DNA from: a virus
Virus record (IMG/VR): IMGVR_UViG_3300019890_000003
Coordinates: 13,682-77,681 of that record
DNA length: 64,000 bases
Reading direction: 5' to 3' (one strand)
Below are positions 5,637-45,135 of the stretch, one piece after another. The notes below the pieces were generated by a model. It worked only from the letters and a program-made list of their open reading frames with translations. It did not search any database and was not told the DNA's origin. The first letter of the stretch is position 1; every line of letters begins with the position of its first letter. Made by a program: the position numbers and the translations under genes.

Positions 5637-6683
5637 TCATGGCGGGCCATAGAAGCTAACACTGCTTGCTTGGATGGCATTGTCGATAGCGTCAGCCGTT
5701 TGCGACGCTACGATGTAGCCCTCATAAAAGGCGCCTGGAGAAGCATTACTTCCATCGCCGCCCTGCATCATAGCGATCCCCCCTTCAAGAAGCAGCGGGG
5801 TATGATCGCCTGGCAAAGCCACATTGTTATTCCAGGTTATTAAAGCCCCGGTTTGCGCATGTCCAGTTTTTCCTGTCCATACGGTTGCCCCATCTGTCTT
5901 CGCAATACCATTTTCGATAGTCGCACCCGCATAGCCGGTGCCAGACAAAAATAGGCCGCCATTCTCGATATCAATCGACTGCAATGGATTTGGATTTCCC
6001 CCCAGACCCAAGGCGAACATGTGACCGTTGCCGTTATCGGAATAAGTACTCTCGCCCTCGCCAAAATCAAAGCAGCAGTTGTTGACCGAAAAGGTGCCGT
6101 TAATCGTCCAATATTCCGTCACAGGAACGCTAGCACCAGTGACTGGTGTGCCTGGCATTCCGCCATTGTTTGGATCGCCATTCCGTGTCCCAGTGCTATA
6201 ACCAACCGCTGGCCGCTGAGGTCCATCTAATGTGCCGTTAAGCTCCTTCTCGGCATTGAAAACTATTTTGCCATTGGTAAGAACAATCCTGCGAACAAGC
6301 GCAGAGCTTCCTGTCGCTCCAAACCCAGTATTGGCAATAAAATCGAGATGGCTAGGCCCTTGGTCATAGAGCTTGGACATAAAGCAGGTTGTAGACGTGC
6401 AGAACGTGTCATAAGCCGCGTGATCTACGATGCCGTTGATCATGCCAATATCGAGAGTCGTGCTATCACTAGCCCGCACCGCTTGAAACAACTTACCGGT
6501 GTAGCTGTGGCTAAGAGCACGATTCAACGAATAAGCCACCACCGCCGGCTTGTTCGCCAAAGCCAGAATATCCATCGGCCACTTGTTTGTTTTGCTACCA
6601 TACTGATGAGTCATAATCGTAGCATGCGCGCCAACGCCAAGAATGCAGACTAGCAATATTAGAAGAAGGCTTCGCAGCTTCAT
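5637..6683 (-). CDS. Signal-peptide GH54 (alpha-L-arabinofuranosidase B catalytic-domain-like) protein
   Basis: YSLNRAL, KLYDQ, NNCCFDFGEGE, GHM, DIENG and EGGIAMMQGGDGSNASPGAFYEG match GH54 motifs. Leader MKLRSLLLILLVCILGVGAHA. Confidence 0.8.
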   Translation of the reverse strand: MKLRSLLLILLVCILGVGAHATIMTHQYGSKTNKWPMDILALANKPAVVAYSLNRALSHSYTGKLFQAVRASDSTTLDIGMINGIVDHAAYDTFCTSTTCFMSKLYDQGPSHLDFIANTGFGATGSSALVRRIVLTNGKIVFNAEKELNGTLDGPQRPAVGYSTGTRNGDPNNGGMPGTPVTGASVPVTEYWTINGTFSVNNCCFDFGEGESTYSDNGNGHMFALGLGGNPNPLQSIDIENGGLFLSGTGYAGATIENGIAKTDGATVWTGKTGHAQTGALITWNNNVALPGDHTPLLLEGGIAMMQGGDGSNASPGAFYEGYIVASQTADAIDNAIQASSVSFYGPP

Positions 6684-7270
6684 AGGATTGTTGCTGCTTC
6701 AAGCGTCATATCTGAGGTAGAGCCTGGGGTATTGGTCGAGGCAGCCTTCCCTATGATGACCGCAAAAAGCGATCCTGACGCCCCAGAAATCGCTTTACCG
6801 ATATTGTCAAGATTATAGATCGTCATCGTGCCAAAATCGCTATTCGCCACCGCCAGAGGATAAATTCCAAGCAAATTGGCCATATCGGCGCCATTCCATG
6901 TTGGAGCGGCATGATCAGCATATGTGCCATTTGATGGGGAAGCCTTGAAGATGGCTACGTCGAATTGAAGCGTTTGAATGCTGGCCTTAAATTTCAAGGT
7001 CAGACTGATCAATTCTCCGTCGAATGTCGTCGCGTTCAGGATATTGGCGATCGTAATAATGCCGCCCCATACAAAGCCGGAGGTATACGAGCTGGCTGTA
7101 ATAGTGGGGGTGACGGACACATCCATGATCTGGCCAACCACAGGAACTTGTGCTTGGTCAGAAGCGATAACTACGGGGTGACTATTGGCACTTGTATTTG
7201 ATCCGCTATTTTGAAGTGTGTTGATCGTTTGCCCTGAACCGGGCGTGACGGTGACTGTTGGCAACGCCAT
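6680..7270 (-). CDS. Beta-rich putative structural protein
   Basis: 196 aa; SANSHPVVIASDQ fibre-like motif; ATGA overlap with the GH54 start. Confidence 0.6.
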   Translation of the reverse strand: MALPTVTVTPGSGQTINTLQNSGSNTSANSHPVVIASDQAQVPVVGQIMDVSVTPTITASSYTSGFVWGGIITIANILNATTFDGELISLTLKFKASIQTLQFDVAIFKASPSNGTYADHAAPTWNGADMANLLGIYPLAVANSDFGTMTIYNLDNIGKAISGASGSLFAVIIGKAASTNTPGSTSDMTLEAATIL

Positions 7271-7304
7271 GTTATATCACCGTCACCGCTAGCCACATCA
7301 TCCG

Positions 7305-7820
7305 TCAGATCGTCTCGTAAACGATATGTCCACCGATAAGGCCTGCTGTACTGCCGGTGAACCCTGATAGAGATGCGTCTCCATTCGGCCCGGTAACGCC
7401 GACAAGTTTGAAGTACTCACCTGGATCCATTGCCGTCCAGCGCACGATGCCACCAAACGCATTGAAGGTAAGATTCAACCTGCCAAGCGTCACGACGTTA
7501 GACCTGGTTGGCTGCGTCGTTGCCGCAATATATCCTACAGCCGGCAACGCTAGTGCAGCGGCTGCTGGATCCATAGGACCATTCGATGACGTACCCGCAG
7601 CCAGAGCGGTAGGCGTGGCGCCAGCGGTCGAATCGCGCGACAAAACCATATACTGCGGCGCAGACGAAGTGGCTTGGCCGCCCATGTACACTTCGCTGAT
7701 GTCGTTACGCTGAGTGGCAGAGCCGCCACCAAGAGCCATATATGTACCGGTCGTTAGAACCGCGTTGTCGGCTGTCGCGGCAGTCGTGAAGCTGTTGGTG
7801 GAAAACGAATACTTGGTCAT
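7305..7820 (-). CDS. Small beta-rich putative structural subunit
   Basis: 171 aa, Ala/Thr/Gly-rich, no Cys, AAGGGG RBS-like sequence upstream. Confidence 0.65.
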   Translation of the reverse strand: MTKYSFSTNSFTTAATADNAVLTTGTYMALGGGSATQRNDISEVYMGGQATSSAPQYMVLSRDSTAGATPTALAAGTSSNGPMDPAAAALALPAVGYIAATTQPTRSNVVTLGRLNLTFNAFGGIVRWTAMDPGEYFKLVGVTGPNGDASLSGFTGSTAGLIGGHIVYETI

Positions 7821-7826
7821 AGCCCC

Positions 7827-8192
7827 TTATCCTTTTAGAAGCGGTGAGACAGACGTTAAGTTCGGGAGCGGGTTATATCCCGCCTCTTTTCTGAACGCCT
7901 GCTCTTGAAGGTGATCAAGCGTCTTAACAAAGGGAGTACATTCAGCGTGGCATGAAGGCTTGTCGCAGATGAACCGATCGCACTTCCGGCAATGGCCACG
8001 GGCTCGAACCCTGTACGGATTCATAATCACGACATCGTCGCAATGAGCGCAGGTTTGTGTAGGCGCCTCTAACACCTTGCCCTCTGGCACCGCCATGGTT
8101 GGATCGAGGCCAACGGCGAATAGCTCATCAGCGGTTATCCCTGGACTCGCGCGGTGATCGACGAGCAGGTGTCCTTCTTTTCTGCGCATCAT
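7827..8192 (-). CDS. Cys-rich putative Zn-binding protein
   Basis: CAHC...CRKCDRFICDKPSCHAEC. Confidence 0.65.
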   Translation of the reverse strand: MMRRKEGHLLVDHRASPGITADELFAVGLDPTMAVPEGKVLEAPTQTCAHCDDVVIMNPYRVRARGHCRKCDRFICDKPSCHAECTPFVKTLDHLQEQAFRKEAGYNPLPNLTSVSPLLKG

Positions 8193-8220
8193 TTCGCCAA
8201 ACCGTCACAGAGTGGTGATT

Positions 8221-8348
8221 AAAAAAGGTTGCCGATCGCAAATTTACCGACGAGGCGGATGGCGACTTAATCAGGCCGTTACTGGACGCAGGCGTTGCGG
8301 CGCCTTGCCCATACCTGAGGGGTACCAACCCGAAAATGCGATCGGCAA
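8221..8348 (-). other. 12-bp inverted repeat enclosing ~96 nt, followed by T6 on the minus strand (structured RNA or terminator candidate)
   Basis: TTGCCGATCGCA 8229-8240 / TGCGATCGGCAA 8337-8348; A6 at 8221-8226. Confidence 0.5.
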
Positions 8349-8349
8349 T

Positions 8350-9759
8350 TCAGTGCCACACACCGACCCAATCGACGAATAGGTCGTACTTCCCAGATGG
8401 AGGCGGGAGCGAAACCCACCCACCGCCGGATGCAAGCTCCAGCATCGGCGCCCATAGCGGCTTCACTGCGGAATTAGGGGAGCTGTATTGCGGAAATGAA
8501 TCGCATTTCAGCTGCACCTCGTCGAAATATTCACAGACAGTGCCGGTTGCGCTGCCAGAATTCGAAATCTTCATCCCGACAGTGTGCCAATCCCAGGTGA
8601 GATCCGCGCCCGACCCAAGAGGATACCCGGCATACCCGCCATTGGGGCTAGCTGGAAAGAACGCTGGCGCATATGCGTGCGTAAATGCCTGGTGATAATG
8701 GATGTCATTCCCGAACATTTCGGTCATGTCCATCTCCATGCCGCCATGAGTCTGATCGCTCAACTCAAGCATCCAGAAGGATGGCCACGTACCGCCTGAA
8801 CAGGTATTATCGCCTGGGACGTTACAGAAGGAGTTCGGGATCAGAATACGGGCGTCATAGTATCCGTCTGTTAGGCCAGGCGCAGAGGCTGATTTATCAG
8901 GATATCCTGTGCCGAGGATCCCACACCGTTGCTTACGGCCAAAGCCGTAGGGATCGACATAAGCAGGATCGAAAGTGTTGCGGATACGCAACCCGCCCTG
9001 TGGTAGAATGGTAAATGGATTGTACCCATTGACACTGTCGGTGTGCTCATTGGCGCAATCGCCGAAGTCTTGTCCGGTGAAGAGCCCTTCATACCATTTG
9101 AAACCATCAGATGCCGTTGGGGCAGTGCAGCTAGGCCACGTACCGGTGCCTGGCTTGCATGGTGTTGAGTTGAGCGTCGTGAAATGATCGCTGAAGGCGA
9201 GGGTCATTCCTGACGCTGGCGCAGGGGTTGGGATGGCAGGACGTGTGCCAGCTACAAAGAGCTTATACCTGCCCTGCAAATGGACTGTAGGACTACCGCC
9301 AGGCACGACATCGTAGGCATTGAATTCCACAGTGAGCGGGCCTGCTGGCTCGGCGGATAGGTCGAGCAGACCGGTGAACATGCTGCCTGAGCCTTGTGTA
9401 AGCCTCACGGCCATCGCACCATGCGTCCATACTTCGACATTGAGCGAGCCCAGCGCCTTGATAACGATCTGTTGCGGGCTGGCCGATACCGTCGCATTCG
9501 CGTCGGTGATGCCGAGATCCAACAAGGCTGGTGACGAAATCTGATTAGACGTCACGACATTGGGTGAGCAGGGTAAAATGATCCCCATCTGGTTGGTGGT
9601 GGCCGATGACGAGGAGCATGTTGGGACCGGCTGACAAAGCGGCACGGTGATCTGCGTATAGCCGCTAGAGCACTCGGCGTGCGCCTCAGGGAACGCGAAG
9701 AAATGAACATACCCCAGCGCTATGAGGAGGAATAAAACCGCGATGAAGTATTTCAGCAT
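8350..9759 (-). CDS. Signal-peptide GH16-like glycoside hydrolase
   Basis: Start reassigned to ATG 9759 (MLKYFIAVLFLL...AHA|ECSSGYT), overlapping the upstream stop. WPSFWML...EMDMTE matches the GH16 ExDxxE motif. Confidence 0.75.
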   Translation of the reverse strand: MLKYFIAVLFLLIALGYVHFFAFPEAHAECSSGYTQITVPLCQPVPTCSSSSATTNQMGIILPCSPNVVTSNQISSPALLDLGITDANATVSASPQQIVIKALGSLNVEVWTHGAMAVRLTQGSGSMFTGLLDLSAEPAGPLTVEFNAYDVVPGGSPTVHLQGRYKLFVAGTRPAIPTPAPASGMTLAFSDHFTTLNSTPCKPGTGTWPSCTAPTASDGFKWYEGLFTGQDFGDCANEHTDSVNGYNPFTILPQGGLRIRNTFDPAYVDPYGFGRKQRCGILGTGYPDKSASAPGLTDGYYDARILIPNSFCNVPGDNTCSGGTWPSFWMLELSDQTHGGMEMDMTEMFGNDIHYHQAFTHAYAPAFFPASPNGGYAGYPLGSGADLTWDWHTVGMKISNSGSATGTVCEYFDEVQLKCDSFPQYSSPNSAVKPLWAPMLELASGGGWVSLPPPSGKYDLFVDWVGVWH

Positions 9760-11408
9760 GTGTGCGGGCTCGATGGCGCCGTGCCAGTTTGGGGAATTAC
9801 GAAGCCAGGCGGTCCCCACGTCCGATCGAAGTCCGTGAAGCTCACTGGCGCGCTGAAGACTGGCGACGTCGGATCGATGACATACGACCAGCATGTCAAC
9901 TTCGGGTCTCCCGTGGTTGGGCTGGCATCGGTATAATTGCCGCCTGAGCTAAGCGTACCGCTCCCATAATTGTGATAGAAATTCGCCGTGATCGTCGGCG
10001 CGGTAGGCGGAGACCCACTCAGAATATTGTAGCCGCCACCGGCGGCGCCGCTGATGACGATGTTGTGCTCGACCTGATTGCCGTCCATGTTCGAATTAAC
10101 GGGGCATGTCGTGGTTTGAAACGCCACAATGCTCTGTCCGAGAGTCGATAGATCGATCAGGTTGTTGTTCACCCGAACGTTACGGCCGCCATGGAAGAGC
10201 ATGGCGGTATTCGAACCATTGCGCCCAGTGATAACATTCCCGGTCGCGAGGATGTCCGTGGCGCAGTCATCCGCATACATGGCCGAGCCGAAGCCCGAAC
10301 CGAGGGTGGCAAACGTGTTTGCGTCGCGGATGTAATTGTTGGTCCATTGGGCGCCGGTGCCGGTTTGCCTGGTGGCGTCGACTTGGTAGATCCCGCTACA
10401 ATCCGCCTGCGCGGTGCAGGTGTTCCAAATCGCCATGTGGTCGATGTGGGGATTGGTGAGGACGCTACCGCTGCCAGGGTTGGTTATGTTTATGCCCCAT
10501 GAATTGGTATCATGGATAACGCCATGCGAAATCGTCATGCCGACAGGACCGTAGAAGGATATTCCGCCTGGCGCTGAGAAGTTGGAGTTCGTGGCGTACT
10601 CGTTAAAGATGATGAAATCTTTGAGGATGACGTTCGTATCGCCGCCCGTCGAATGGAAGCCGCTGTGCTGGAAATCGTGCAGCGACAGGCCGTCGATCGT
10701 CACATTTGTGGTGTGATCGAAGTTGAAGATGAAATGCAGGCCGTTGCCGAAGGCCGTCGAGCCGCCCGTAAGGTCGGCGCTGTCATAGCCGTCCGGAGGA
10801 TAATAGGACCACGTCTCGCCACTATCGGCCGACGTGAGGGCTATCCCACAGGTAATGCCGGTGCCGCCGTCGCAATTCTGGACTGGCGTTGGGAAGCTGT
10901 AGCTGCCGGCGCGGATGTATGTGGTTAGGATCGTGCCGCTCGCGCGCATGGCCGCTTGGGCTTTGCTAAGCGTGGCGAATGGCGCAGCTAGAGTCCCAGC
11001 ATTGCTATCGCTGCCATTAGTGGCAACGTAGAACGCAGATGCCAAAGCTGGATTCACGGTCAAGGCAAGGGACGCCGTGCCTGTCCCGCCAGCGTTCGTC
11101 GCGCTCTCGGTCGTATTCGTGGTGCCGGTGACCGTGGGCGTGCCGGAAATAAGGCCGGTGCTGGTGTTGACTGACATGCCAACGGGCAGGGGCGATGCGC
11201 CCCAGCTCGTAGGGGTATTCGTGGCCGTGATCTGGAAACTGCACGAGGTGTTAACCGTGCAGCTTCCTGATGCCGGGCTCGTAATCACCGGCGCCGGCGT
11301 GCTGTTTAATTGGCACAACGGCACTGTGACCGCAGTGTATCCAGCCGCGCACTCGGCAAAGGCGGGGCCGGCTAGCGCAACAAGGAAGGCTGCGAGAATA
11401 CCTCTCAT
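9753..11408 (-). CDS. Signal-peptide protein: He_PIG-type Ig domain plus right-handed beta-helix (pectin-lyase-like fold)
   Basis: Start ATG 11408 (ATGA overlap). TGLISGTPT Ig motif; FYVATNGSDSNAGTLAAPFATLSKA; Asn-rich beta-helix coils. Confidence 0.8.
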   Translation of the reverse strand: MRGILAAFLVALAGPAFAECAAGYTAVTVPLCQLNSTPAPVITSPASGSCTVNTSCSFQITATNTPTSWGASPLPVGMSVNTSTGLISGTPTVTGTTNTTESATNAGGTGTASLALTVNPALASAFYVATNGSDSNAGTLAAPFATLSKAQAAMRASGTILTTYIRAGSYSFPTPVQNCDGGTGITCGIALTSADSGETWSYYPPDGYDSADLTGGSTAFGNGLHFIFNFDHTTNVTIDGLSLHDFQHSGFHSTGGDTNVILKDFIIFNEYATNSNFSAPGGISFYGPVGMTISHGVIHDTNSWGINITNPGSGSVLTNPHIDHMAIWNTCTAQADCSGIYQVDATRQTGTGAQWTNNYIRDANTFATLGSGFGSAMYADDCATDILATGNVITGRNGSNTAMLFHGGRNVRVNNNLIDLSTLGQSIVAFQTTTCPVNSNMDGNQVEHNIVISGAAGGGYNILSGSPPTAPTITANFYHNYGSGTLSSGGNYTDASPTTGDPKLTCWSYVIDPTSPVFSAPVSFTDFDRTWGPPGFVIPQTGTAPSSPHTC

Positions 11409-12682
11409 CTGAATGTCACGCCAATGCAAGTCATGGCGCCAGAATTACCAGCCGTGAACGTTTGCGCTACGGGAGCTGACGCAGGCGCGTAATCTCCCCA
11501 TCTATAAAAATCAGCGATCCCGCTTCCGGCTGTTACAACATGCGACAGCGTTGCCGGTGACAATGCCGTTGGAGAGCCGAGATCGTTCATCCCGACATAG
11601 AATGCCCACTCTCCTGACTGCCATGTTTCGCTTATTGCCGGCACGACGCATGTCGTTCCATTTGACGTGTTTGCCTTACTCGATACTGCCTTAACCGCAA
11701 TCGACCCAGACGACGTTTTGTAATTCCTGATATTCCCGTCAATTGCCGCATAGGCCAGACCGGAACCAGGCATCGTTACCGTGTAAGATGCAGGCTCAGA
11801 ACTTGCAGTACGAGAAAAGAGTGCTGTCGTGAAGTTCCCATAAACTGGATCAAGTGCATTAGCTAGGCGGGCAACCACCGTCCACCCTGCCGGGGTGTTT
11901 GGCGTCTCGACAGGATCGGTTAAGGCCGTCTGCGAAGTGACGACCATAAACATTAAATCGCCATTGGCGACGCCAGCAGGCGTGCTCAATACGACGGACT
12001 GCGAAGCCGAAGCATTATATCCGCCGTCAGCGCCGAAGGAAATTGTGCCAGAGCCGGCCGCCGCGATGGTCAACGCCAGGTTTTGAGTTCCCGTCCCCGC
12101 CCCATTGGTTGCACTAAGGCCGACGGTGCTCGAACTAGCTGCCGTTGGCGTACCGGAGATAGTACCGGTCGAAGTGTTAATCCCGAGAGGAGCCGGAAGA
12201 TTGCTTGCGCCATAGCTGGTCGGCATATTGGTTGCGGTAATATGATATGTAAATCCAGTGCCCACCGTGCCAGACGCCGTGGTGGGGCTGTTGATAACCG
12301 GTGGCGAGCCAGCGGCGGCGATAGTCAGGGCCAGCGTCTCATTGCCGGTGCCCGTCCCATTCGTCGCGCCTAGCGTGACGTTGCCGCTAAAGGGGGCAGT
12401 GGGAGTGCCTGATATGAGACCGGTCCCCGTATTGACCCCAAGGGGTGATGGAAGCCCGGTAGCACTGTAGCTAGTGGGCGAATTGGTTGCGGTAATCTGG
12501 TAGCTGAAGGCCATCCCGGCGGTGCCGCTAGCGGTTGACGGACTAGTGACGACGGGCGCGCCAGTGGTGTTTTGCTGGCAGGCAAAGACGTTACTCAGCT
12601 GCGTGTAACCCGTAGCGCACTGGGCATTTGCTCCCACCGTAAGCGCGATAAGTGCCGTGAAAGCAATGGCTAAGGACTTCAT
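11405..12682 (-). CDS. Signal-peptide protein with two He_PIG-type Ig domains and a C-terminal beta-sandwich
   Basis: Two PVxxSPxTASGT...TGxISGTPT units. LSTPAGVANGDLM...TPAGWT...SEPASYT domain. Leader ends ANA. Confidence 0.8.
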   Translation of the reverse strand: MKSLAIAFTALIALTVGANAQCATGYTQLSNVFACQQNTTGAPVVTSPSTASGTAGMAFSYQITATNSPTSYSATGLPSPLGVNTGTGLISGTPTAPFSGNVTLGATNGTGTGNETLALTIAAAGSPPVINSPTTASGTVGTGFTYHITATNMPTSYGASNLPAPLGINTSTGTISGTPTAASSSTVGLSATNGAGTGTQNLALTIAAAGSGTISFGADGGYNASASQSVVLSTPAGVANGDLMFMVVTSQTALTDPVETPNTPAGWTVVARLANALDPVYGNFTTALFSRTASSEPASYTVTMPGSGLAYAAIDGNIRNYKTSSGSIAVKAVSSKANTSNGTTCVVPAISETWQSGEWAFYVGMNDLGSPTALSPATLSHVVTAGSGIADFYRWGDYAPASAPVAQTFTAGNSGAMTCIGVTFR

Positions 12683-33372: not shown

Positions 33373-33388
33373 TGGACACGGTGGAGAA

Positions 33389-34509: not shown

Positions 34510-34767
34510 ATGTTCAAGGTAGGTCAGAGAGTTTTGTGCATCATTGATAATTTCGATCCGGATGCGAGCCCTAATCCTCCTGCACATAAAGTTTTATGGC
34601 CTGTGAAGGGGTATGAATATACAGTTTCCTGGATCCGAGAAAGGCATGGTTGGGCATGGCCCAACCATTGTGAGCTAGGGTTGGTCTTAGAGGAACTACC
34701 TTACCATCTAGGATTCGATGCGCGCGCATTTACCACAGCGGTTAGTCATGATCGAAAATATCGATAG
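34510..34767 (+). CDS. Hypothetical protein
   Basis: GAGGAG RBS; FKVGQRVLCI. Confidence 0.6.
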   Translation: MFKVGQRVLCIIDNFDPDASPNPPAHKVLWPVKGYEYTVSWIRERHGWAWPNHCELGLVLEELPYHLGFDARAFTTAVSHDRKYR

Positions 34768-35004
34768 AGCATGAACGTGAGCCTGCCTGAGCACCTCGAG
34801 GTTGTGCTTGAACTTGATTAGCAATTCCTTGTCGTTATCTACCGACGAGCCAGCATTGCTAATGTAATACACCTCGAACCAGCTTCTTGATATGGTCCGC
34901 GTAGGCCGCGTCGATCGCGGCCTTTTCCATTTCCCATTTGCGCGGACCAGCTTCGATGCTCATCGGCTTCTCCGGAAATGGCCATTCGATATGGAATTTC
35001 TCCG

Positions 35005-35763: not shown

Positions 35764-35833
35764 CAGGTCCCACCGCCGATTAAATAGAGAACAAAAAGCA
35801 CGAGAAGCACCGTCCACACGGTATCGACGAAGC

Positions 35834-36034
35834 TCATTTGATTTCCGGCTCGATCAGCGGGTAAACCCCGAGTTTGTTAGCTTTGAGGGCGGCGAGAAGC
35901 GCATCAATTAGGCCTGGAACATAGCCCTCAATCTCGCCCTCGAACCAGCCAGCGGCCGACGCATTGTCTCTGACATACTGCTTGCCGGCCTCTGTTAGGA
36001 TTGTCTTGATGTTATCAGCCGCCATTATCGCCAT
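35834..36034 (-). CDS. Hypothetical protein
   Basis: 66-aa ORF in late operon. Confidence 0.45.
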   Translation of the reverse strand: MAIMAADNIKTILTEAGKQYVRDNASAAGWFEGEIEGYVPGLIDALLAALKANKLGVYPLIEPEIK

Positions 36035-36439
36035 CCATGGTGATGGTAGGGGATGCCAATGCCGATCCCTATGCCGCCGTCGTCATCTGGGACGATCGCG
36101 CAAGCGCTTAGGACAAGCATGGCCAGGATCGATAATGCGAAGACGAATTTAACGGACGTTACCACCGTCGGAACTCCTATGAAGGACAAAGACAATAAAC
36201 CCGAAGATCGCGAAAATTATCAGATAGCCTACCATCGCAACCACATGGCGCGCGTCACCCCTCTGGAGGATCCGGCGCCTTTGTCTCTTCGGCAGTCTTA
36301 GCCAATGCCTTGAACGCATCTGAGAACTCATGGTGGATTTGCAAACTAATTCTGCCTTCTGACGTCTCTCCACGGAACCACGTAATGATGTGGATGAACA
36401 CGAGGATCCACACACCAAGGAACGTTAGGATCGCCAGCA

Positions 36440-37138
36440 TTATCGGATATCTCTATGCGCGGTGGTCACCGGCTTTCCGGCGTACGCCACGGAAAGATAG
36501 TTCAGCGCATACGTCATCCCGGTTTTAATAATCCCCTCGGCTTGTATGCGCCGGCCAGAAGCCGGCATCGCCATATCCCAAGCCCAGCATATTTTCCCGT
36601 GCTCGGCCACGCGTACCGCGAGATCGGTGTCCTCGCCGTAGAACTCGATCGATGTGTTGAAGCCGCCCGCGCGCTCAAGCGCGTCGCGCCGAACCGCGAA
36701 ATTCCCGCCTTGTAGCATCGCGCCGGTAATCCGATAAATCAGATAGGCATTCATGTTAAAGAACAGCGCCAAAACGCGTTGCCGTCTAGGCAAGTCATAG
36801 AAAAAGGATGGCCCAGTGACGGCCGCGATAGGCTCGCCGAAATGCTTCAGAAGCCGCGTAAACCAATAAGCTGGCATGCGCGTATCCGCATCGATGCAGC
36901 AGATGATGTCGCCCCTGGCCGCCTCGAAGCCCCTTTGCCTAGCAAAGGAGATTCCCTTCCGTGGCTCGTCTACCACAACCGCGCCGTAGGCAACGGCGCC
37001 CGTTCTGTCCGTGGAGGCGTTGTTAACGACAATAATTTCAATCTGACGGAAACAATTCTTGGCTGCGTCCTTAATCGCCGCAAGGCAATCAGGCAATTCC
37101 GCTTCTTCATTATATGCGGGGATAACGACGCTAATCAT
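36440..37138 (-). CDS. Glycosyltransferase family 2
   Basis: ISVVIPAYNEE, VVNNASTDRT, IDAD, GGF...YGEDTDL. Confidence 0.92.
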   Translation of the reverse strand: MISVVIPAYNEEAELPDCLAAIKDAAKNCFRQIEIIVVNNASTDRTGAVAYGAVVVDEPRKGISFARQRGFEAARGDIICCIDADTRMPAYWFTRLLKHFGEPIAAVTGPSFFYDLPRRQRVLALFFNMNAYLIYRITGAMLQGGNFAVRRDALERAGGFNTSIEFYGEDTDLAVRVAEHGKICWAWDMAMPASGRRIQAEGIIKTGMTYALNYLSVAYAGKPVTTAHRDIR

Positions 37139-37775
37139 GCGGAATTTGCATCCACAAGAACATGGCGCCAACAATGGCACAAACGAAAACAATTAGGATC
37201 AAAATTGAATTCATCGGCCACACCACCAATCTGATGGATGTATGACACATCCGACCACATAAATCGGCAGAAACAAAAGGCCAAACACCAGCACGAAGGC
37301 CACGATTGCTTTCACTTCGTGCACTTAACGGAGGTGGTGTGGATGCCCTCGGTGGTTTGTGTCGTCACCGGCTTATAGGAGCATGCGTTCTCGGACACAT
37401 AGCCGTGCTTTTCCATCACGGGCGTCCTGCAATAAGGCACGTATCCCGCACAAATAATCACAACAGCCGCGACGAGTTTCATTTGGGCACGCATATGGTG
37501 GCGGTCATTCCGCCTTGCTCGTAGGGACTCATCTTTGCAATTTCCACACGCGCGTTCTCACATGCGGCCTGCGAGCTGAACTCGGTGGAAAATCCCAATA
37601 GGGGATTGGTATTCCATATGAGAAAGATCAACACATACATCATTTGGTCTCCAGCGCGATCGCCGCGACGAGTTTCATCCTTTATCGCCCAACTTCCAAA
37701 TGAGGATAGAAACCGCCAAGGCAATCACTATAGCAACACCAATCGCGGTGGCCACTCCTATAAAAACACACTTCA

Positions 37776-38141
37776 TCACTTAGTCCAGTAGCCATAGATA
37801 GGCTTGCCATTCAGGTATCCAAGAATGACTGGCGCTGATGGAGATCCAACCGCCATTGCAAATTGTCTCCTGGACATGCCGGCCACTGGTTTCGGCGGGA
37901 TCAGGACTGAACACACTTGCGAGGCCACCATGGTTATTTGCGCCGCCGTGGGGTTCACGAGCCCGTCATCAGCCAAGACCGTCTCAAGGGAGGCAACGGT
38001 AGGCACAGCCCCGCATGCCGTGTCTATGGCGTTCCCAAGCGCGTCTAGGACCGATGCTGGCGTCACCCCAGGGAAGTCAGCCTGGAGGGTGGCGCAACCG
38101 GTGAGCGCGAGAAGCGCGCAAGCGGCAATAAGATTTTTCAT
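37776..38141 (-). CDS. Lipoprotein in lysis region (spanin candidate)
   Basis: Lipobox LTGC after a hydrophobic leader. Confidence 0.6.
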   Translation of the reverse strand: MKNLIAACALLALTGCATLQADFPGVTPASVLDALGNAIDTACGAVPTVASLETVLADDGLVNPTAAQITMVASQVCSVLIPPKPVAGMSRRQFAMAVGSPSAPVILGYLNGKPIYGYWTK

Positions 38142-38283
38142 TCCTTAGATTCCTCTGCAATGATTACGGCCAATCGGCGCTCGACTTCCCTTAGTTCGTC
38201 TAAGTCACAAAGGCGCAAGAGTGCCTCGATATCTTTGACCAATGCGTCTCCAGTGACTCTTTTCCAAACAGGGCTAAGGGCGC

Positions 38284-38703
38284 TCACGTGCGTAGCCCTG
38301 TGAAGATACCGGTGCGAGGATCGTAGAGAGACTGGCCCTTAGATGGCACGAACCCGCCTTTGCCATCCGGAACCATAGTTGATCCAACGCCTAGGACGAT
38401 CGGGACAAGGAACGTCGCGACGGCGAGCGCATCGGCTGGGACGGTTAGGGCCGGAATGAAAACGGCGCCAATCTTGAGGAACGTATCAATTAGCGACGCG
38501 CCAGCCTCGATCTCGCCTAGGACGTTATGATCCTTCCACGCAGCCTCGAAGCCGACCCAATCTCCGGACTTGAAGAACCCGAGGACCTTCTCGATATCCG
38601 CGATTTCAGCTTCGATGTTAGCTGGTAGGCCAATAGGCGCAACCGGTGTCGGCACTGGCGTGCTAGGGAAAAGGCTCCCGATCCAACCAAGAATGCCGCT
38701 CAT
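38284..38703 (-). CDS. Hypothetical membrane-associated lysis-region protein
   Basis: Coupled to the holin; hydrophobic C-terminal half. Confidence 0.55.
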   Translation of the reverse strand: MSGILGWIGSLFPSTPVPTPVAPIGLPANIEAEIADIEKVLGFFKSGDWVGFEAAWKDHNVLGEIEAGASLIDTFLKIGAVFIPALTVPADALAVATFLVPIVLGVGSTMVPDGKGGFVPSKGQSLYDPRTGIFTGLRT

Positions 38704-39008
38704 TTGCTAACGACCTTATCGTCTGGCGCGAACTGGGCGGAAGTGGCGATTTCCGGAGTTGTCACGATCGAATGCACCTCGGGGAGCGCACTCGCGGCGG
38801 CAATCGTGCCGCCTGTGGAATGCACCCAAAGGCCCCAGATAAAAGTGGCAATGCCCGGTGCTAACCCAAGAAGGAAAACCGTCAAAGCGCCGGCGGATGC
38901 CGTTGTCGCCCATCCCTTAGAAACAAGGACTCCAGAAATTACCGCAGAGGCATATGTGATCACCCAACGAATCGCCATTGTAATTTGGTCTTGTGTAATT
39001 CCTAACAT
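38700..39008 (-). CDS. Putative holin
   Basis: Two TM segments, directly after the endolysin. Confidence 0.65.
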   Translation of the reverse strand: MLGITQDQITMAIRWVITYASAVISGVLVSKGWATTASAGALTVFLLGLAPGIATFIWGLWVHSTGGTIAAASALPEVHSIVTTPEIATSAQFAPDDKVVSK

Positions 39009-39016
39009 CCCAACTC

Positions 39017-39484
39017 CTATGCTGCGGTTATTGCTGGCGGCGAGGCCCCACGAACGGCCTCAATGGCAATCCCGGCCCAATGGATGCGGCTAGGCATGTT
39101 GATGATGCCGGCGCGCTCATAGCCGCGCTCAAAGGCCACCGTGGCGGCTTTCAGATTAGGCGCCTTGGCGACAGCGGCGACCGTGGCACCATCTTGGTGA
39201 AGCTCTTTTACGAGATAGCCGTAATTCGCTGCCTCGGAATGCCAATCGAGCTTGACGACTTCGCAATAGTGCAAAAATTCTCGCGCGCGCGGGCCGGTCC
39301 ATTGCGCCCAACCAAAGCCGCCGCGATTTGGCTTCGCGCCGATCTCCCGCAATTCTAGAAGGCCATCACTCTCGTGGCCGAGGTTGCCCATGCAGCCGGC
39401 GGCCTGGAAGTCTTCCCAATCAAACTCTGTCATGAGCTTTGGGATGACGAGGCGGCAGGTATCTTGGAAAAGAATCGTCGACAT
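39017..39484 (-). CDS. Endolysin, phage-tail-lysozyme-like fold
   Basis: QAAGCMGNLGHES, GFGWAQWTGPR, FERGYERAG; GAGG RBS before ATG 39484. Confidence 0.8.
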   Translation of the reverse strand: MSTILFQDTCRLVIPKLMTEFDWEDFQAAGCMGNLGHESDGLLELREIGAKPNRGGFGWAQWTGPRAREFLHYCEVVKLDWHSEAANYGYLVKELHQDGATVAAVAKAPNLKAATVAFERGYERAGIINMPSRIHWAGIAIEAVRGASPPAITAA

Positions 39485-39554
39485 CGCCGCCTCGCTGTGA
39501 ACGCGCTGGTGACGGTGTCTTAGAGGGCTTTTGCCCGCGTTGTCAAGGGCATGC

Positions 39555-39719
39555 CTATATGAAAGGTATCCCGGCGAAAAACACCGCCAACACACTTCCA
39601 AACAATATGCCGCCTTCACACGCATCTCCGAGGGAAGCGTCATCCTCCTTCGAAAAAATGTACCCGCCAATCAGAACGGCGGTGCCGGTAAAAAAGATCG
39701 GCGAAAATGTTTCTAACAT
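39555..39719 (-). CDS. 54-aa two-TM protein (not in ORF track)
   Basis: MLETFSPIFFTGTAVLIGGYIF...GILFGSVLAVFFAGIPFI. Confidence 0.45.
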   Translation of the reverse strand: MLETFSPIFFTGTAVLIGGYIFSKEDDASLGDACEGGILFGSVLAVFFAGIPFI

Positions 39720-39999: not shown

Positions 40000-40716
40000 C
40001 TAGCAATGGGTGACCAAGCCGGCGTTGACTGTAAAGAATGGGGTTGGCGGTCCGAAGCATGACACCGCCATGGTGCCTTTGACGTTTACGCTCCCGACGT
40101 CTAGTGTAAGCATACCTGAGCTGTGGATGTGGAAGTCGCTAGGCCATTGTTGTAGCCATGCGCTTGATCCATCTGGCGCTTCCCACCAAATGTAATCGTA
40201 CACCGGCATGCCTATCGCGGCGCCCGCCTCGAGCGCGCCGTTGGCGAAGACAATTCCGGTTTTGTATTGCTGGGTGTTTGGGGCGATGGCCAAGGCCGTT
40301 CCACACTCATGCTCATTTGCCTGCCCGTTCCCGCAATCGATCAGGAGATTGGTGTTCGTGACTGGATTCCAATTGTATGGGGCACGCCCGGCCACCACCG
40401 GCCCTTGGTTGACAAGGGAGTTTTCCTCGTCGATCAGGCGGCCGGAGCTACCCGGCGTGATGACGCCAAGCGTGTAACGCGCCCAGGCGTTCCCAGAGCC
40501 GCCGCCGCTGTTGAGCATCGCGATCGCGGTGTCGGCGACGGTGTAATTGTTGATGGTTCCCAAAGTTTGCGTGGCGGCCACACTACCGCTCCCCGCCGCC
40601 GCGCCAAAATACGCTCCGACGAAGGACGGTACCGTGTTGCAAACCGGGGCCACGCATGTTTGTGCGGACGCCGCCGAGCTGAAGAGAGCGGCGAGTAAGA
40701 CAAAATAACTTCGCAT
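40000..40716 (-). CDS. Signal-peptide fibre/spike-like protein
   Basis: Leader ends ASA|QTCVAPVC; C-terminus VSCFGPPTPFFTVNAGLVTHC. Confidence 0.7.
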   Translation of the reverse strand: MRSYFVLLAALFSSAASAQTCVAPVCNTVPSFVGAYFGAAAGSGSVAATQTLGTINNYTVADTAIAMLNSGGGSGNAWARYTLGVITPGSSGRLIDEENSLVNQGPVVAGRAPYNWNPVTNTNLLIDCGNGQANEHECGTALAIAPNTQQYKTGIVFANGALEAGAAIGMPVYDYIWWEAPDGSSAWLQQWPSDFHIHSSGMLTLDVGSVNVKGTMAVSCFGPPTPFFTVNAGLVTHC

Positions 40717-40721
40717 TGCGA

Positions 40722-41099
40722 TTAACTACACGTAACGGTGATAGTCGTTGGGGCCGAGGTGCCGGTCGAACTTATCGCGTAGAGCACAAACGTATAGGTC
40801 CCTGCCGTTCCCGCGCTCATATAAAACAAGCTTGTATTTGGACCGGGATTGGACGCAGTAAAAAGCGGCGGACTCCCTCCGCTAGTGCTGTACCCATAAA
40901 ACGACGTAACGTTACCGGAAGCCGTGGCTTGATATGTGTTATTAATCCCGCCAACCACACAATTTGATGTCGTCAAAGGGCTCGTGATCACCGGATTCGT
41001 TTGTTGACACACCGGAAGCGCCGGACCAGCCACGCATTGAGCAAAAGCGGAGGCTGGGGCAAAGAAAAATAGAATTAGCAGACGACACAGTTTCGTCAT
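40722..41099 (-). CDS. Signal-peptide single-Ig-domain protein, related to the N-terminus of 11405..12682
   Basis: AFA|QCVAGPALPVCQQTNPVITSP...YQATA. Confidence 0.7.
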   Translation of the reverse strand: MTKLCRLLILFFFAPASAFAQCVAGPALPVCQQTNPVITSPLTTSNCVVGGINNTYQATASGNVTSFYGYSTSGGSPPLFTASNPGPNTSLFYMSAGTAGTYTFVLYAISSTGTSAPTTITVTCS

Positions 41100-41109: not shown

Positions 41110-43629
41110 TCATAGTTCCGCCGCCGTAGTTGAAACATTTGTAATACTACAAGTTCCTCCTGCACCGCCTGCGGATAATTGAACATCAAACCAAAGAGCT
41201 GTTGATAGGGTTCTTCCAGTTGTGACTCCAGAAAGAGAAAAAACGCTTATCTGATCTGTGGCGAACGTCGTCTGTTCTGACGCTCCAAGAACCGTTCCAG
41301 TAGTGGCCGCTCCGAGTGTTGGGGCGGTACCAGTTCCGAACCGAAGAGCCACAAAACATCTGTCGTTCGTAAGTGTGTTCGCTACAGAACCGTTTACAAT
41401 AAATAAGACCGTGCCGGTTTTTGTCGGAGTGATTGCGCCCGCAAGGCCCTCCATCACTGCTGTTACACTAGAATTCCCACTAGCTGGATTTGATGGGGCG
41501 GCCGTACCACCAGAGGTGGCCAAACTGCATGTCGAGCCAAGGGTACAGGTGACGCCGTTAACTGTCGTGCTAGGATTCGCCAGCTTGGTGTTCGTGACGG
41601 CAGCAGAACCTATCGTTGTCGCGCACGAGCCAGCCGATGTTGTGACATCTCCAGTCAACGCTGGTGTCTGCCCGCAAGCAAGTGAACTCGCAATATTGGA
41701 AAACGCTAATGGCGATCCGCCGATTTGATACGTGCCAGAAGCTAGATTGAGACCGCCGCCAGTGGAAAGCGTAAGCAGCGCGCCATAACCGCCGCCATTA
41801 ACCTGGCCGCTCCAAACCAGATTGCCGCTTGGACTAATTGCCCCTTGAACAGGTTGCAGTTCTTCGATCACGTCGACGGTCTGGCTACCGGCGGTCGCGT
41901 TGGTCTTCCAACCTTGGCCCGTGAAGTGCACGCGCGGCGACCATTTCTGAGCACCAACCGTCGCCGCCGTAATATCCGTCAAGAGCAAACCATCGGTGCT
42001 AGTGGCAGCGATCGCTTGCGTGCCAGTGATAGCACCAGAGGTCCCTAGGCTCGTTAAAGTGCCCAAACTCGTCAGGGACGATGCCGTGACGCCGGCCGCC
42101 AGAGTGGCACCTGTCAACGTGCCTGCCGGAGCTATAACCGCGTTCGAGCCTGCCGAGACAATCAACCCCTTCCCGTTAACATTGAAGTTAGGGATAGAAG
42201 TCGATGAGCCGAAGGAACCCACATTCGTGTTAACCGTGGCCAACGTTGTGGCGCAACCAACGGACGTGACATCACCTGTTAATGTACCGCACGCTCCAAT
42301 GGCAGCGGTGGTCATAGCGGTAACAAGACCCTTGCCGTTTACCGTTATAACTGGGACAAGCGAGGAGCTTCCGAAGGTGCCTGTATTGGCGTTGACCGTG
42401 TTCAACGTGGTAACAAAACTATTCGCCGGCGTCGTGAGATCCCCGGACATCGCCGCCGTTTGTAAATTAGTTCCTGAGAATGCGAGCGTCGCCCCGAGCG
42501 CCACCGCTCCCGCATTGCCGATCGAACCGGAAGAATTCCCTACCAGGCTGCTTGCAGCAACCGTTTGAAACTTGCCATAGGTTACGGCGTTCGCCGCGAT
42601 CGTCGTGGCGCATGAGCCAGCGCTCGACGTGACGTCACCCGTATTGGCTGGCTCACTAGCGCAAGCGACATTGAATCCAGATGCGGTGGTGCCGCTCGCC
42701 AACGTGCCGGTGCCGGTAATGTTAGCCTGGGTCGCCGCTGGGATTGTCGATGAAATCGACGGGACTCCGCCAGCGCCCGTAATGAGCACGCCGTTGTTCG
42801 CCGTCGCAAGCCCGACGACGGTTGTCCCGGCCGCGTTGTACCAAGCGAGCTGATTGATCAATGCAGACGTTACGGTGCCGCCACCGCCGCCAACCGTGCA
42901 AGCGCCACCGGCATCGATGAAATTGCCGCTTGCATCGATCGAGACGCAGTGACCGCTGGTAAGGGTGCCTGTCGCTGTAGCAAAGGTGGTCGTGCTACCA
43001 GAGCGCGTGCCAAAAGCGACATTCGAAGTTCCCGCCCCAATCAATGGGGCATTAGCCGTCAGAGTCGCGAGACCGGTGCCGCCATTAGCAACGGAAACCT
43101 GCCCTGTCAGATCGGTGGCCGGGATCGCCGGAAGATCGGCATTGACGAGCGCGCGGAATGTGGGCGTCCCTGTCGAGCCACTCGGCGCGGCGAACACCTT
43201 GTTTGTTGTCTGTGTTGCGAGCGATACGGCAAACGTGCCAGCGCCGGTAATAGGGGATCCGCCGACGGCCATAATAGACGGGACCGTCATAGCAACGGAT
43301 GTTACAGTGCCGCCGCCTGTAAGGGATATGCACCCAAGAACTCCGCCATTGTTGTATAAGCCAAATCCGTTCGTGCAAGCGCCGGTGATCGGGCTCCCAA
43401 CCGTCAGGCCAACGGCTGATCCATTTACGAAGAAGCCGCCCGAAACATTTATGGTGCCGATACCCTTTTGGCCGCCAGTCGGCGCGCCCATAGTAAGGCC
43501 GCCATTGTTGTAAAAAAGAGATAGCGACGGCCCGTAATTCCAAGGGTCCGGCGGCGGACCAGGGCCGGTCTGCGCATAGACAGCGCTAGAGAGCGCCGCG
43601 AATCCTAGGATTGCGAGGACACGTTTCAA
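41110..43629 (-). CDS. Long tail-fibre-like protein with signal peptide
   Basis: GGTVTSV, VANGGTG, LTGDVT and NGKGL fibre motifs; leader MKRVLAILGFAALSSAVYA; 14 Cys. Confidence 0.8.
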   Translation of the reverse strand: MKRVLAILGFAALSSAVYAQTGPGPPPDPWNYGPSLSLFYNNGGLTMGAPTGGQKGIGTINVSGGFFVNGSAVGLTVGSPITGACTNGFGLYNNGGVLGCISLTGGGTVTSVAMTVPSIMAVGGSPITGAGTFAVSLATQTTNKVFAAPSGSTGTPTFRALVNADLPAIPATDLTGQVSVANGGTGLATLTANAPLIGAGTSNVAFGTRSGSTTTFATATGTLTSGHCVSIDASGNFIDAGGACTVGGGGGTVTSALINQLAWYNAAGTTVVGLATANNGVLITGAGGVPSISSTIPAATQANITGTGTLASGTTASGFNVACASEPANTGDVTSSAGSCATTIAANAVTYGKFQTVAASSLVGNSSGSIGNAGAVALGATLAFSGTNLQTAAMSGDLTTPANSFVTTLNTVNANTGTFGSSSLVPVITVNGKGLVTAMTTAAIGACGTLTGDVTSVGCATTLATVNTNVGSFGSSTSIPNFNVNGKGLIVSAGSNAVIAPAGTLTGATLAAGVTASSLTSLGTLTSLGTSGAITGTQAIAATSTDGLLLTDITAATVGAQKWSPRVHFTGQGWKTNATAGSQTVDVIEELQPVQGAISPSGNLVWSGQVNGGGYGALLTLSTGGGLNLASGTYQIGGSPLAFSNIASSLACGQTPALTGDVTTSAGSCATTIGSAAVTNTKLANPSTTVNGVTCTLGSTCSLATSGGTAAPSNPASGNSSVTAVMEGLAGAITPTKTGTVLFIVNGSVANTLTNDRCFVALRFGTGTAPTLGAATTGTVLGASEQTTFATDQISVFSLSGVTTGRTLSTALWFDVQLSAGGAGGTCSITNVSTTAAEL

Positions 43630-43644
43630 CGGCCTTCTCCAGGC

Positions 43645-43959
43645 TTAATAAACGACGACAGTGAATTTGTGATTGCTCGTGGCGGCGTTCACGAGCGTCG
43701 CGGTGACTTGGCCTGGAATTAGGTTCCAACTCTGCCCCGGTTGGAGCGCAATGGCCGTTCCATTCGCATTCAAGCCTGGAGACACGCCAGTCGGGTCTAC
43801 GATAAGCGGCTCTGCCGTGCCGATACCTTGATCAGAGGCCGTGAGCGGATTCACGATATATCCGCCATTATAGCCAGCCGGCAAGGCGAAGGCGGCAGTT
43901 ACCGCCGTCCCGCCGGTTGTGATAAAACTGTGGGCGCCTGCGACTGGTGTTACGGTCAT
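43645..43959 (-). CDS. Small structural protein, paralog of the N-terminal domain of 45764..46873
   Basis: GGYIVNPLTASDQGI...VNAATSNHKFT. Confidence 0.75.
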   Translation of the reverse strand: MTVTPVAGAHSFITTGGTAVTAAFALPAGYNGGYIVNPLTASDQGIGTAEPLIVDPTGVSPGLNANGTAIALQPGQSWNLIPGQVTATLVNAATSNHKFTVVVY

Positions 43960-43968
43960 GTTCAGGTC

Positions 43969-45135
43969 CTATTGGTATTGACAACCGGATCCTGATGTAC
44001 CGGCGACGCTTCCTGGATAGTAGTTCAAGTTACCGCCGGATAGTGTTTCGATAACGCCGTTCAGGACGCAATCGAATTTCCCCCCGGTCACATTTCCAGC
44101 GCCGGTTATCGACGGAAGTATTAGACCTTCAAAACCGGCACCTCGAGCGACTACAAAATATTGCACGGTTATTGGAGTCGTTATTACCATCGACGTAGTA
44201 CCGGCGATAAATCCACCGTAATTTGCATCAAACACCGCACCGCATCCAGGATTGCATGCCTGACCAGTACTGGATCCAGAGACAGAAATTGTCCCAGAAC
44301 CTACATTAACACTGGATTGCTGCGCGAAAACCCCATCCCCGTAGCATGTTCCAAAAATGATATTGGTAATCGTCAATGCTGTTTGTTGCTGTGCAAAAAT
44401 ACATGCGCCGAGACTGTCTGCGGGTGTCGAATCGGTCTGTATTAGGGTAAATCCGTTAAACGATTGGCCTGTGACTCCTGTAGCCGTAATGGTAGATGTC
44501 GTGCTTGACGAAATTACCACAAGGGATGGAGTGCTGACGTTTCCTATCCAATTTACAAACCCATTCCCGCCAACCGGAAGTAGAACGACAGGAGCGTATG
44601 TGCCGGTGCCGACATTGATGGTGATGGTGAATCCATTAGCATTGTATTTGCTGATGAACGTTGCGGCATGTTGCAAGGTTAGCCAACAGTTAGGTGACAC
44701 CCCCGTGTTTGAATCGTTTCCGCTTGTCGCAACACAGAATGTCGTGGGGGCAAAAAGTATCGGTTGAGGTGAGATAGTGCTATCGAGCACATACTCTGTG
44801 CCGTCATACACCAATACCGTCAACTGACCGGCAACCATCTCTTGGCCGCCAAGAACAGTCAGACCGCTCTGAGTTGCCTTTTTAATCGCGGTAGCTGCCG
44901 TACCACCAACGGCCGCAGTTGCCGCCCCCGTGTTCGTCGCCGATGGGAGGAACCGGATAGGGACGCCAACCAAATCGGCGATAGAGGAAACGTTTGGAAT
45001 GCCGATTACGATAGCGTTCGCCGTGCCGGTGGTTGTCGCCTGCCACGTTTGCTGCGATATGAATTGCGCGCTCGCCGGTATCGACGCCGCGAAGACAAGC
45101 GCGAGGCAAACTAAAATATTCCTTATGGTCCGCAT
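43969..45135 (-). CDS. Tail-fibre/tailspike-like protein (beta-helix) with signal peptide
   Basis: TGTANAI...TNTGAAT fibre N-domain; VATSGNDSNTG...LTLQHA; leader ends ASA. Confidence 0.75.
   Translation of the reverse strand: MRTIRNILVCLALVFAASIPASAQFISQQTWQATTTGTANAIVIGIPNVSSIADLVGVPIRFLPSATNTGAATAAVGGTAATAIKKATQSGLTVLGGQEMVAGQLTVLVYDGTEYVLDSTISPQPILFAPTTFCVATSGNDSNTGVSPNCWLTLQHAATFISKYNANGFTITINVGTGTYAPVVLLPVGGNGFVNWIGNVSTPSLVVISSSTTSTITATGVTGQSFNGFTLIQTDSTPADSLGACIFAQQQTALTITNIIFGTCYGDGVFAQQSSVNVGSGTISVSGSSTGQACNPGCGAVFDANYGGFIAGTTSMVITTPITVQYFVVARGAGFEGLILPSITGAGNVTGGKFDCVLNGVIETLSGGNLNYYPGSVAGTSGSGCQYQ

Follow-up and report, generated by a model that had tools for sequence, protein, structure and literature searches.

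Predicted export leaders and paired cysteines in tail-fibre and glycanase genes of a temperate myovirus: candidate virion parts that may fold in the periplasm

To our knowledge, tailed phages are regarded as being built wholly in the cytoplasm, where their parts are both synthesized and put together. Tail fibres of T4 can be added in vitro to fibreless particles. Late phage proteins that are routed through Sec before lysis have been described in the form of Sec-exported and signal-arrest-release (SAR) endolysins, such as Lys44 of fOg44 and Lyz of P1 (PMC6116005), and ∼5% of prophage carbohydrate-active enzymes (CAZymes) have SignalP leaders, in a survey that excluded tail fibres and structural genes (PMC13507307). 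The MAT proteins of Bdellovibrio bacteriovorus are Sec leader-bearing, phage-tail-fibre-like trimers with variable tips, some of them with disulfides (PMC10769870). Beyond such endolysins, secreted CAZymes of prophages and the MAT fibres, our literature search turned up nothing on tail fibres of tailed phages that bear leaders. In the Cellulophaga phage phi18:3 (NC_021794), the products of gp085–gp087 (32891–38583) have leaders followed by Gln according to the rule-based test described below; in GenBank they are listed, on the basis of tandem mass spectrometry, as virion or tail proteins, and the record is silent on leaders and their cleavage. By analogy, these proteins may be regarded as a precedent for leader-bearing virion proteins. 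Here we describe a 64,000-nucleotide stretch of viral DNA (the window), bases 13682–77681 of the IMG/VR record IMGVR_UViG_3300019890_000003 (77,681 bp, rated complete), in which eight proteins encoded in a tail-fibre slot and in a glycanase cluster carry predicted Sec leaders and even numbers of Cys residues. It is very probable that the periplasm is where part of the host-recognition gear of this phage folds, the particle itself being built in the cytoplasm.

The eight open reading frames (ORFs), which a sequence-only reading of the window had singled out as encoding exported proteins, do exist on the minus strand at 5637–6683, 8350–9759, 9753–11408, 11405–12682, 40000–40716, 40722–41099, 41110–43629 and 43969–45135, and each of them starts with Lys or Arg followed by an uncharged hydrophobic run and a small-x-small site. 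Leaders were called with our own rule-based heuristic rather than with SignalP; the rules demanded that an uncharged run of 8–17 residues, with a mean Kyte–Doolittle value of ≥1.8, be preceded by a net positive charge, that positions -3 and -1 hold small residues, and that the cleavage site come before residue 41. This test flagged 11 of the 101 ORFs of the genome, against 0.97 expected from shuffled proteins: the eight ORFs listed above, a lipoprotein that is a likely o-spanin (37776–38141), a 102-amino acid (aa) ORF outside the window and one small ORF. All eight proteins showed the charged n-region, the h-region and the small -3/-1 residues typical of Sec export and signal peptidase I cleavage. 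Routing by the twin-arginine (Tat) system was rejected, as no RR motif was seen in the N-termini of the eight ORFs. Lipoprotein routing was rejected as well: where the leader of the 43969–45135 product has a Cys, its homologues have G, S, L, F or A, and a lipobox is found only in 37776–38141. The 102-aa ORF (G000:C1:10605–10913, minus strand) encodes a ninth leader-bearing protein, with a Thr-rich mature chain and no Cys, and sits between a repeat-protein block and the terminase genes.

Miscalled starts were also rejected. The start calls are supported in several ways: homologues begin at the same leader, including the one that follows the TTG start of 41110–43629, two of the starts overlap the preceding stop codon, and Shine–Dalgarno-like motifs are found upstream of 11405–12682, 41110–43629 and 43969–45135. 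The next in-frame starts lie 10–55 codons downstream, and no better ribosome-binding site was seen there.

The Cys counts of the mature chains given in the sequence-only reading were reproduced (4, 12, 12, 4, 6, 4, 14 and 8, in the order of the coordinates above); all are even, and three of the eight proteins hold one extra Cys within the leader. The Cys residues fall mostly into local pairs, most of them spaced by 4–20 residues. The tail sheath (57431–58822) and the tail tube (56973–57416) and the products of 6680–7270, 7305–7820 and 3692–4204 have neither Cys nor a leader, again as first noticed. Among the long ORFs, the median Cys content is 2.0 per 100 aa when a leader is present and 0.6 when it is not (p = 0.013).

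Comparison with homologues showed that the leaders are conserved in position and character at 61–79% identity while their sequences drift. For the 388-aa product of 43969–45135 (SP-388), each of the ten close homologues (61–74% identity) has a hydrophobic leader that ends in A-x-A and is followed by QF-x-AQ(Q/E)TWQ; there are eight mature Cys in nine of these homologues and six in the other. For the 839-aa product of 41110–43629 (SP-839), the four closest homologues (P0001–P0004) have a leader followed by GPGPxPDPW. In the 120 best homologues of SP-839, the Cys content was found to follow the leader, with a median of 1.29 Cys per 100 aa in the 55 proteins that have one and 0.11 in the 65 leaderless proteins (Mann–Whitney p = 5e-14), so that the leader-bearing relatives are ∼12-fold richer in Cys. 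Of these 55, 42 have an even number of Cys in the mature chain (p = 1e-4). Cys residues also disappear in pairs: the SP-388 pairs 134/150 and 294/298 are jointly missing in leaderless relatives and in two divergent leader-bearing ones, and the SP-839 pair 447/459 is jointly missing in two homologues. Judging from these alignments, such pairwise gain and loss is the pattern expected for extracytoplasmic disulfides. Oxidation of disulfides by DsbA-type enzymes is periplasmic. Because the leaders are conserved, the Cys pairs covary and the Cys density tracks the leader across 120 homologues, we hold with high confidence that the eight proteins are exported and form disulfides in the periplasm.

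An indication of what these proteins might do comes from SP-388 (minus strand), which has a leader (cleavage at about 23/24, ASA/QF), a shoulder domain (residues ∼36–121) and a right-handed beta-helix (residues ∼131–388), with the eight mature Cys in four local pairs. Its structure model, with a predicted local-distance difference test score (pLDDT) of 82, shows the leader as an N-terminal helix, together with a beta domain and a right-handed beta-helix; the PDB matches of the model are pectin methylesterases, Pel9A and phage tailspike beta-helices. Compared with phrog_8469-type fibres, SP-388 has the fibre body and lacks the N-terminal anchor, in place of which stands the leader. The anchor is found on a separate 210-aa protein (45135–45767, minus strand), hereafter the stub, which is leaderless and Cys-free and matches phrog_8469 (tail fiber) with its N-terminal part only; the stop codon of the stub gene overlaps the SP-388 start. 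Residues 1–108 of the stub are the particle anchor common to whole fibres, and residues 113–209 form an extra C-terminal domain (C-domain) of 97 aa. In the unsplit leaderless fibre P0134 (582 aa), residues 1–108 are 62% identical to the N-terminus of the stub and residues 304–582 are 39% identical to residues 121–387 of SP-388. The mature N-terminus of SP-388 matches the shoulder domain that follows the anchor in whole fibres, and residues 24–388 align with the post-anchor part of P0133, P0134, P0135, P0138, P0144 and the fibre of the contig L030. By these alignments, SP-388 appears to be the distal part of a split tail fibre in which the anchor has been replaced by a leader and has been kept on the stub. 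A search of the cultured-phage collection with SP-388 gave no match.

In all loci that were fetched, the C-domain of the stub was found only directly upstream of leader-bearing SP-388 homologues. It occurs in four contexts (the window; L025, L026 and L029; L027; L028) with two unrelated anchor types, and the leaderless fibres of nine relatives share the anchor only and not the C-domain. In L028, the stub has a P2-like anchor: over residues 1–134 it shares 69% identity with the N-terminus of the unsplit L030 fibre (510 aa), and over residues 142–237 it shares 53% identity with the C-domain of the window stub. The body of the L030 fibre, in turn, shares 40% identity with a 392-aa protein of L028 that bears a leader, and the baseplate proteins of the two contigs are 62% identical. 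Because baseplate, anchor and body are all related at these levels, the same tail lineage exists both with a whole, leaderless fibre (L030) and with a fibre split into a stub and a leader-bearing body (L028). The C-domain is as conserved as the anchor. An Atlas look-up placed it in unnamed viral clusters with sub-threshold resemblance (0.88–0.89) to T4 gp9/10 N-terminal, Mtd_N and Phage_depo_C, and structure prediction for the stub (alignment A2) gave a mean pLDDT of 38, too low to use. The simplest reading, which we propose from this distribution, is that the C-domain is a candidate docking site where the exported body re-attaches. A weaker reading is that the C-domain and the exported protein travel as a cassette and that the C-domain itself is a small receptor-binding tip.

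A comparable arrangement may exist for SP-839 (minus strand, TTG start), in which a leader (VYA/QT) and a conserved start of the mature chain, GPGPxPDPW, precede a long fibre body that contains DUF5907-type repeats. Its 14 Cys fall into seven pairs, which include 85/100, 228/244, 323/340, 447/459, 652/669 and 695/701. The repeats match annotated tail fibres of cultured phages, in short repeat matches only. The leader and the GPGPxPDPW motif recur in tail modules of the related phages L007, L012 and L026/L029, and a scan of viral contigs with SP-839 returned distant leaderless relatives only. Just upstream of this fibre, both in the window and in L026/L029, is encoded a leaderless, Cys-free protein of 104 aa (43645–43959, minus strand), which duplicates, as a separate protein, the N-terminal domain (47% identity, E = 8e-20) of a 369-aa protein (45764–46873) whose gene follows the J-like baseplate gene. 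L007 has a similar-sized protein upstream of its GPGP fibre, likened to the 104-aa protein by size and position alone. The 104-aa protein and SP-839 may thus be a second pair of an adaptor and an exported fibre. Two small leader-bearing proteins complete the fibre block. The first, of 125 aa (40722–41099, minus strand, four mature Cys), has a Cys-loop tag (QC-x8-CQQ) after the leader and one immunoglobulin (Ig)-like domain, with a weak PKD-like Pfam match only; the second, of 238 aa (40000–40716, minus strand, six mature Cys), has a short Cys loop (QTC-x4-C) and then a domain without an assigned family, and is encoded by the last gene before the lysis cassette.

The four remaining leader-bearing proteins, all encoded on the minus strand, form a cluster of glycan-binding and glycan-cutting proteins (5637–12682). 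The 425-aa protein (11405–12682, four Cys) consists of a leader, a Cys-loop tag (C-x2-GYT-x8-CQ), two He_PIG Ig domains (Pfam E = 2.7e-15) and a C-terminal domain, and matches phrog_8763 (tail protein, 4.9e-21). The 551-aa protein (9753–11408, 12 Cys) combines a leader, a Cys-loop tag and He_PIG with a Pel9A-like beta-helix. The 469-aa protein (8350–9759, 12 Cys) has a long leader (AHA/EC), a Cys-loop tag and a domain resembling glycoside hydrolase family 16 (GH16). The latter assignment is a lead and not a membership: language-model features of the Atlas score 0.92 to Glyco_hydro_16 clusters, and we found no Pfam match, to GH16 (PF00722) or any other family, even at E = 1, and no PDB sequence match. 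The 348-aa protein (5637–6683, four mature Cys including a vicinal pair) has a leader (AHA/T) and a predicted GH54 catalytic domain, with a match to alpha-L-arabinofuranosidase B (PF09206, E = 2.4e-45, 155.4 bits versus a cut-off of 25) that covers positions 1–310 of the 315 in the model. Sequence searches of the PDB with four of the proteins gave nothing meaningful.

A Cys loop directly follows the cleavage site in five of the eight proteins, as C-x2-GYT-x6-8-CQ or a shortened form with two invariant Cys, and this tag links the fibre slot to the glycanase cluster. The search with 11405–12682 was dominated by He_PIG repeats of giant bacterial proteins; none of its 150 best matches had an N-terminal Cys-loop tag, a result uninformative on the tag. 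Leaderless, Cys-rich small proteins that may bind zinc are also encoded among the leader-bearing genes, at 7827–8192 (seven Cys in 121 aa) and, in L026, at 6489–6935 (10 Cys in 148 aa). The glycanase block is closed by a large leaderless protein with a Gly-rich N-terminal domain (2–3643, running off the window; 1290 aa in the contig), which has no Pfam or PHROG match and could be a further cytoplasmic fibre-like protein.

The phage that carries these genes is a temperate myovirus infecting a diderm host, temperate because a tyrosine integrase (31626–32636) is present and diderm because a lipoprotein in the lysis cassette is a likely o-spanin. The cassette (37776–39670, minus strand) adjoins the fibre block on its downstream side and encodes an endolysin (39017–39670; Pfam Phage_lysozyme2, 1.7e-18), in which the rule-based test found no leader, a holin-like protein (weak Pfam match), a 139-aa protein and the lipoprotein (37776–38141) with the lipobox LTGC. 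Downstream of the cassette lies a family-2 glycosyltransferase (GT2) gene (36440–37192, Pfam 4.9e-27), with a small hydrophobic ORF (36255–36440) alongside; from its family, the GT2 gene looks like a surface-polysaccharide conversion gene, which would fit a glycan receptor. Directly upstream of the leader-bearing fibre genes, and in the same orientation, are the baseplate genes (45764–51644, minus strand; PHROG matches), including the J-like wedge (46873–48306, minus strand) and the hub (49454–50422, minus strand), all leaderless and Cys-poor (0–2 Cys). Four of the eight ORFs follow the baseplate genes, in the position of tail fibres. Junctions between the co-oriented genes overlap or span 6–16 nucleotides, and promoter- and terminator-like sites show no excess over chance, an arrangement that points to late co-expression with the baseplate genes.

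Other late genes include two adjacent tape-measure-like paralogues (52259–54388 and 54388–56256) that both match phrog_7694, one of them also phrog_1259 (baseplate hub/tail lysozyme), and an HNH/endonuclease VII-type gene (60634–61212) inserted among the head-completion genes of the late operon; head and packaging genes occupy the start of the contig. The nearest cultured phages, at ∼44% sheath identity, are the Klebsiella phage Chronis and the Yersinia vB_YenM phages. The single genome match of the baseplate protein is a Rhodopila metagenome-assembled genome, and the SP-388 profile found only leaderless, Cys-poor prophage fibres in 401 sampled genomes of Alphaproteobacteria.

Leader-bearing genes also occur in this position in related phages. 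In three complete relatives (65–70 kb; baseplate protein 54–58% identical), the stretch from the tail-fibre gene to the lysis cassette encodes one to three leader-bearing proteins; no glycanase cluster was found in these three genomes. The metagenome contigs L026/L029 repeat the gene order of the window, with the J-like protein, a 372-aa protein, a 210-aa stub, a leader-bearing 390-aa protein and a 104-aa protein, then a Cys-rich small protein and three leader-bearing proteins of 365, 825 and 279 aa. Similar proteins accompany unrelated tail modules: in L035, a leader-bearing fibre of 845 aa and 14 Cys follows the tail-tip genes, and L040 has a P2-like baseplate followed by a leaderless 480-aa fibre and by leader-bearing proteins of 789, 254 and 591 aa. 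No such leader-bearing proteins were found in the high-GC relatives L002–L006, L008 and L018.

These observations can be combined into the following scheme. During late infection, the eight late products would be exported through Sec, their leaders would be cleaved by signal peptidase I, and the exported chains would be oxidised in the periplasm, the Cys-poor leaderless heads, tails and baseplates being assembled in the cytoplasm. The products fall into two classes, namely fibre-derived host-recognition proteins (SP-388, SP-839 and their two small partners) and the glycan-binding and glycan-cutting cluster (He_PIG Ig domains, beta-helix, GH16-like and GH54 proteins). The stub keeps the baseplate anchor and ends in the 97-aa domain, and the fibre body with its beta-helix tip is encoded separately as a leader-bearing protein. 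The breach of the envelope by holin, endolysin and spanin would bring the oxidised distal fibres together with the stub-bearing particles, so that they would dock on the C-domain of the stub, and the glycanases would be released at the same breach, either free or docked through the Cys-loop tag.

This route of export, oxidation and late joining to particles had been suggested for all eight proteins. Its first part, export and periplasmic disulfides, is borne out by conservation, covariation and Cys density; its last part did not fare as well for the glycanase/Ig cluster (5637–12682), whose products are at least as likely to be exported enzymes that never enter the virion. For the fibre-derived proteins, docking is favoured because of the anatomy of the split fibre, the tight coupling to the baseplate genes and the phi18:3 precedent, and we give the whole chain up to docking on particles at lysis a chance that falls just short of even. 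The support is specific and comparative for 43969–45135, where the split fibre and a stub-specific domain point to docking, and for 41110–43629 docking is plausible by homology to tail fibres. A broader proposal can be advanced only tentatively: that the particles of this phage group are finished outside the cytoplasm, with distal fibres and perhaps tagged glycanases exported by Sec, locked by Dsb and docked on the 97-aa socket at lysis, and that this route arose from a split fibre gene and recurs in many soil and marine phage lineages.

Several observations weigh against docking. The link between SP-388 and the C-domain of the stub could reflect a recombination cassette rather than binding, and the C-domain could itself be a small receptor-binding tip. 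In G001, G002, G003 and L040, leader-bearing proteins occur alongside a full-length leaderless fibre, so that fibres may exist besides the exported proteins. GH54 and GH16-type enzymes are ordinary secreted enzymes, and their cluster is missing in the three complete relatives. SP-388 is without a cultured relative and the phage is known from its sequence alone, the leader calls come from a home-made heuristic and not from SignalP, and dilution at lysis would counter efficient docking.

Some of these points fit a different explanation, in which the proteins are exported and never become virion parts, acting instead as free enzymes or binders, first in the periplasm and then, once the cell has lysed, outside it. 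The beta-helix, GH16-like, GH54 and fibre-derived binders would then cut or mask the surface polysaccharide of the host from within and strip the matrix of its neighbours, sparing the progeny from loss on debris and making new hosts reachable; the 97-aa domain of the stub would be the small receptor-binding tip of the particle itself. Glycoside-hydrolase and beta-helix folds are indeed present, leaders occur in the ∼5% of prophage CAZymes mentioned above (PMC13507307), the relatives retain a complete leaderless fibre, the phage has a GT2 glycosyltransferase typical of surface-sugar conversion, and the glycanase block, an accessory one by its absence from the three complete relatives, is where this explanation fits best. 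However, SP-388 keeps the whole post-anchor architecture, including a shoulder domain that a free enzyme would not need, and the C-domain of the stub equals the anchor in conservation, which would not be expected of a fast-evolving receptor tip, and travels with SP-388 across two anchor types. The leader-bearing genes are, moreover, tightly coupled to the baseplate genes. Overall, we regard the absence of these proteins from virions as a serious contender, if one with clearly less than an even chance.

It is improbable that infected or lysogenic cells display the fibre-like proteins on their outer surface, whether for adhesion or as decoys or blocks against other phages. The MAT proteins show that Sec-exported, disulfide-bearing, phage-fibre-like trimers can stand on a cell surface (PMC10769870), and the integrase marks the phage as temperate. 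Nevertheless, no module for outer-membrane translocation or anchoring was recognized, the genes lie within the late tail operon with no promoters of their own seen, and the lipobox is not conserved, the Cys in the SP-388 leader being lost in homologues. Finally, a very small chance is left for the explanation that the N-terminal hydrophobic stretches are not working leaders and that the proteins fold in the cytoplasm, the stretches being miscalled starts, membrane anchors or trimerization segments, since the leaders, although called by a heuristic and with a long h-region (∼20 aa) in 8350–9759, are kept in position and character as their sequences drift, have no better start downstream and are tracked by Cys density and parity.

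Should export and prior oxidation prove routine for host-recognition parts, virion assembly would gain a step at or after lysis, and host range would come to depend on the Sec and Dsb functions of the host. Pipelines that drop leader-bearing proteins from the structural set during annotation would then be in error, and receptor-binding proteins of this kind would have to be directed to the periplasm when made recombinantly. A defined protein pair is provided by the split fibre, residues 105–210 of the stub and mature SP-388, with which the question can be tested without a phage culture.

Compared with the systems described so far, the proteins of the window would share the passage through Sec before lysis, and action when the holin fires, with Sec-exported and SAR endolysins, which differ in being lysis enzymes rather than host-recognition or structural proteins. 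The products of 5637–6683 (GH54) and 8350–9759 (GH16-like) resemble the leader-bearing prophage CAZymes, secreted-type glycoside hydrolases of temperate phages, but have a Cys-loop tag shared with the fibre module and are encoded on the late strand. The MAT proteins, likened here by their features, are also leader-bearing and fibre-like and have a conserved ∼130-aa beta-rich domain right after the leader; they are, however, encoded in a cellular genome rather than in a phage tail operon and are displayed on the predator cell. The gp085–gp087 proteins of phi18:3, likened by features and not by sequence relationship, are large and leader-bearing, and their genes adjoin lysis and packaging genes, whereas phi18:3 is a cultured podovirus of a Bacteroidota host and its proteins have only 0–3 Cys. 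Further counterparts are the leaderless whole fibres (P0134; the 510-aa fibre of L030; L004, L007, L015 and L024), in which the anchor is 42–62% identical to residues 1–108 of the stub, the shoulder and beta-helix body is 34–40% identical to mature SP-388, and the gene has the same post-baseplate position. These fibres are single polypeptides without a leader, without three extra Cys pairs and without the 97-aa C-domain of the stub; what is new in this phage is a split fibre with a leader-bearing body and a 97-aa domain specific to the stub.

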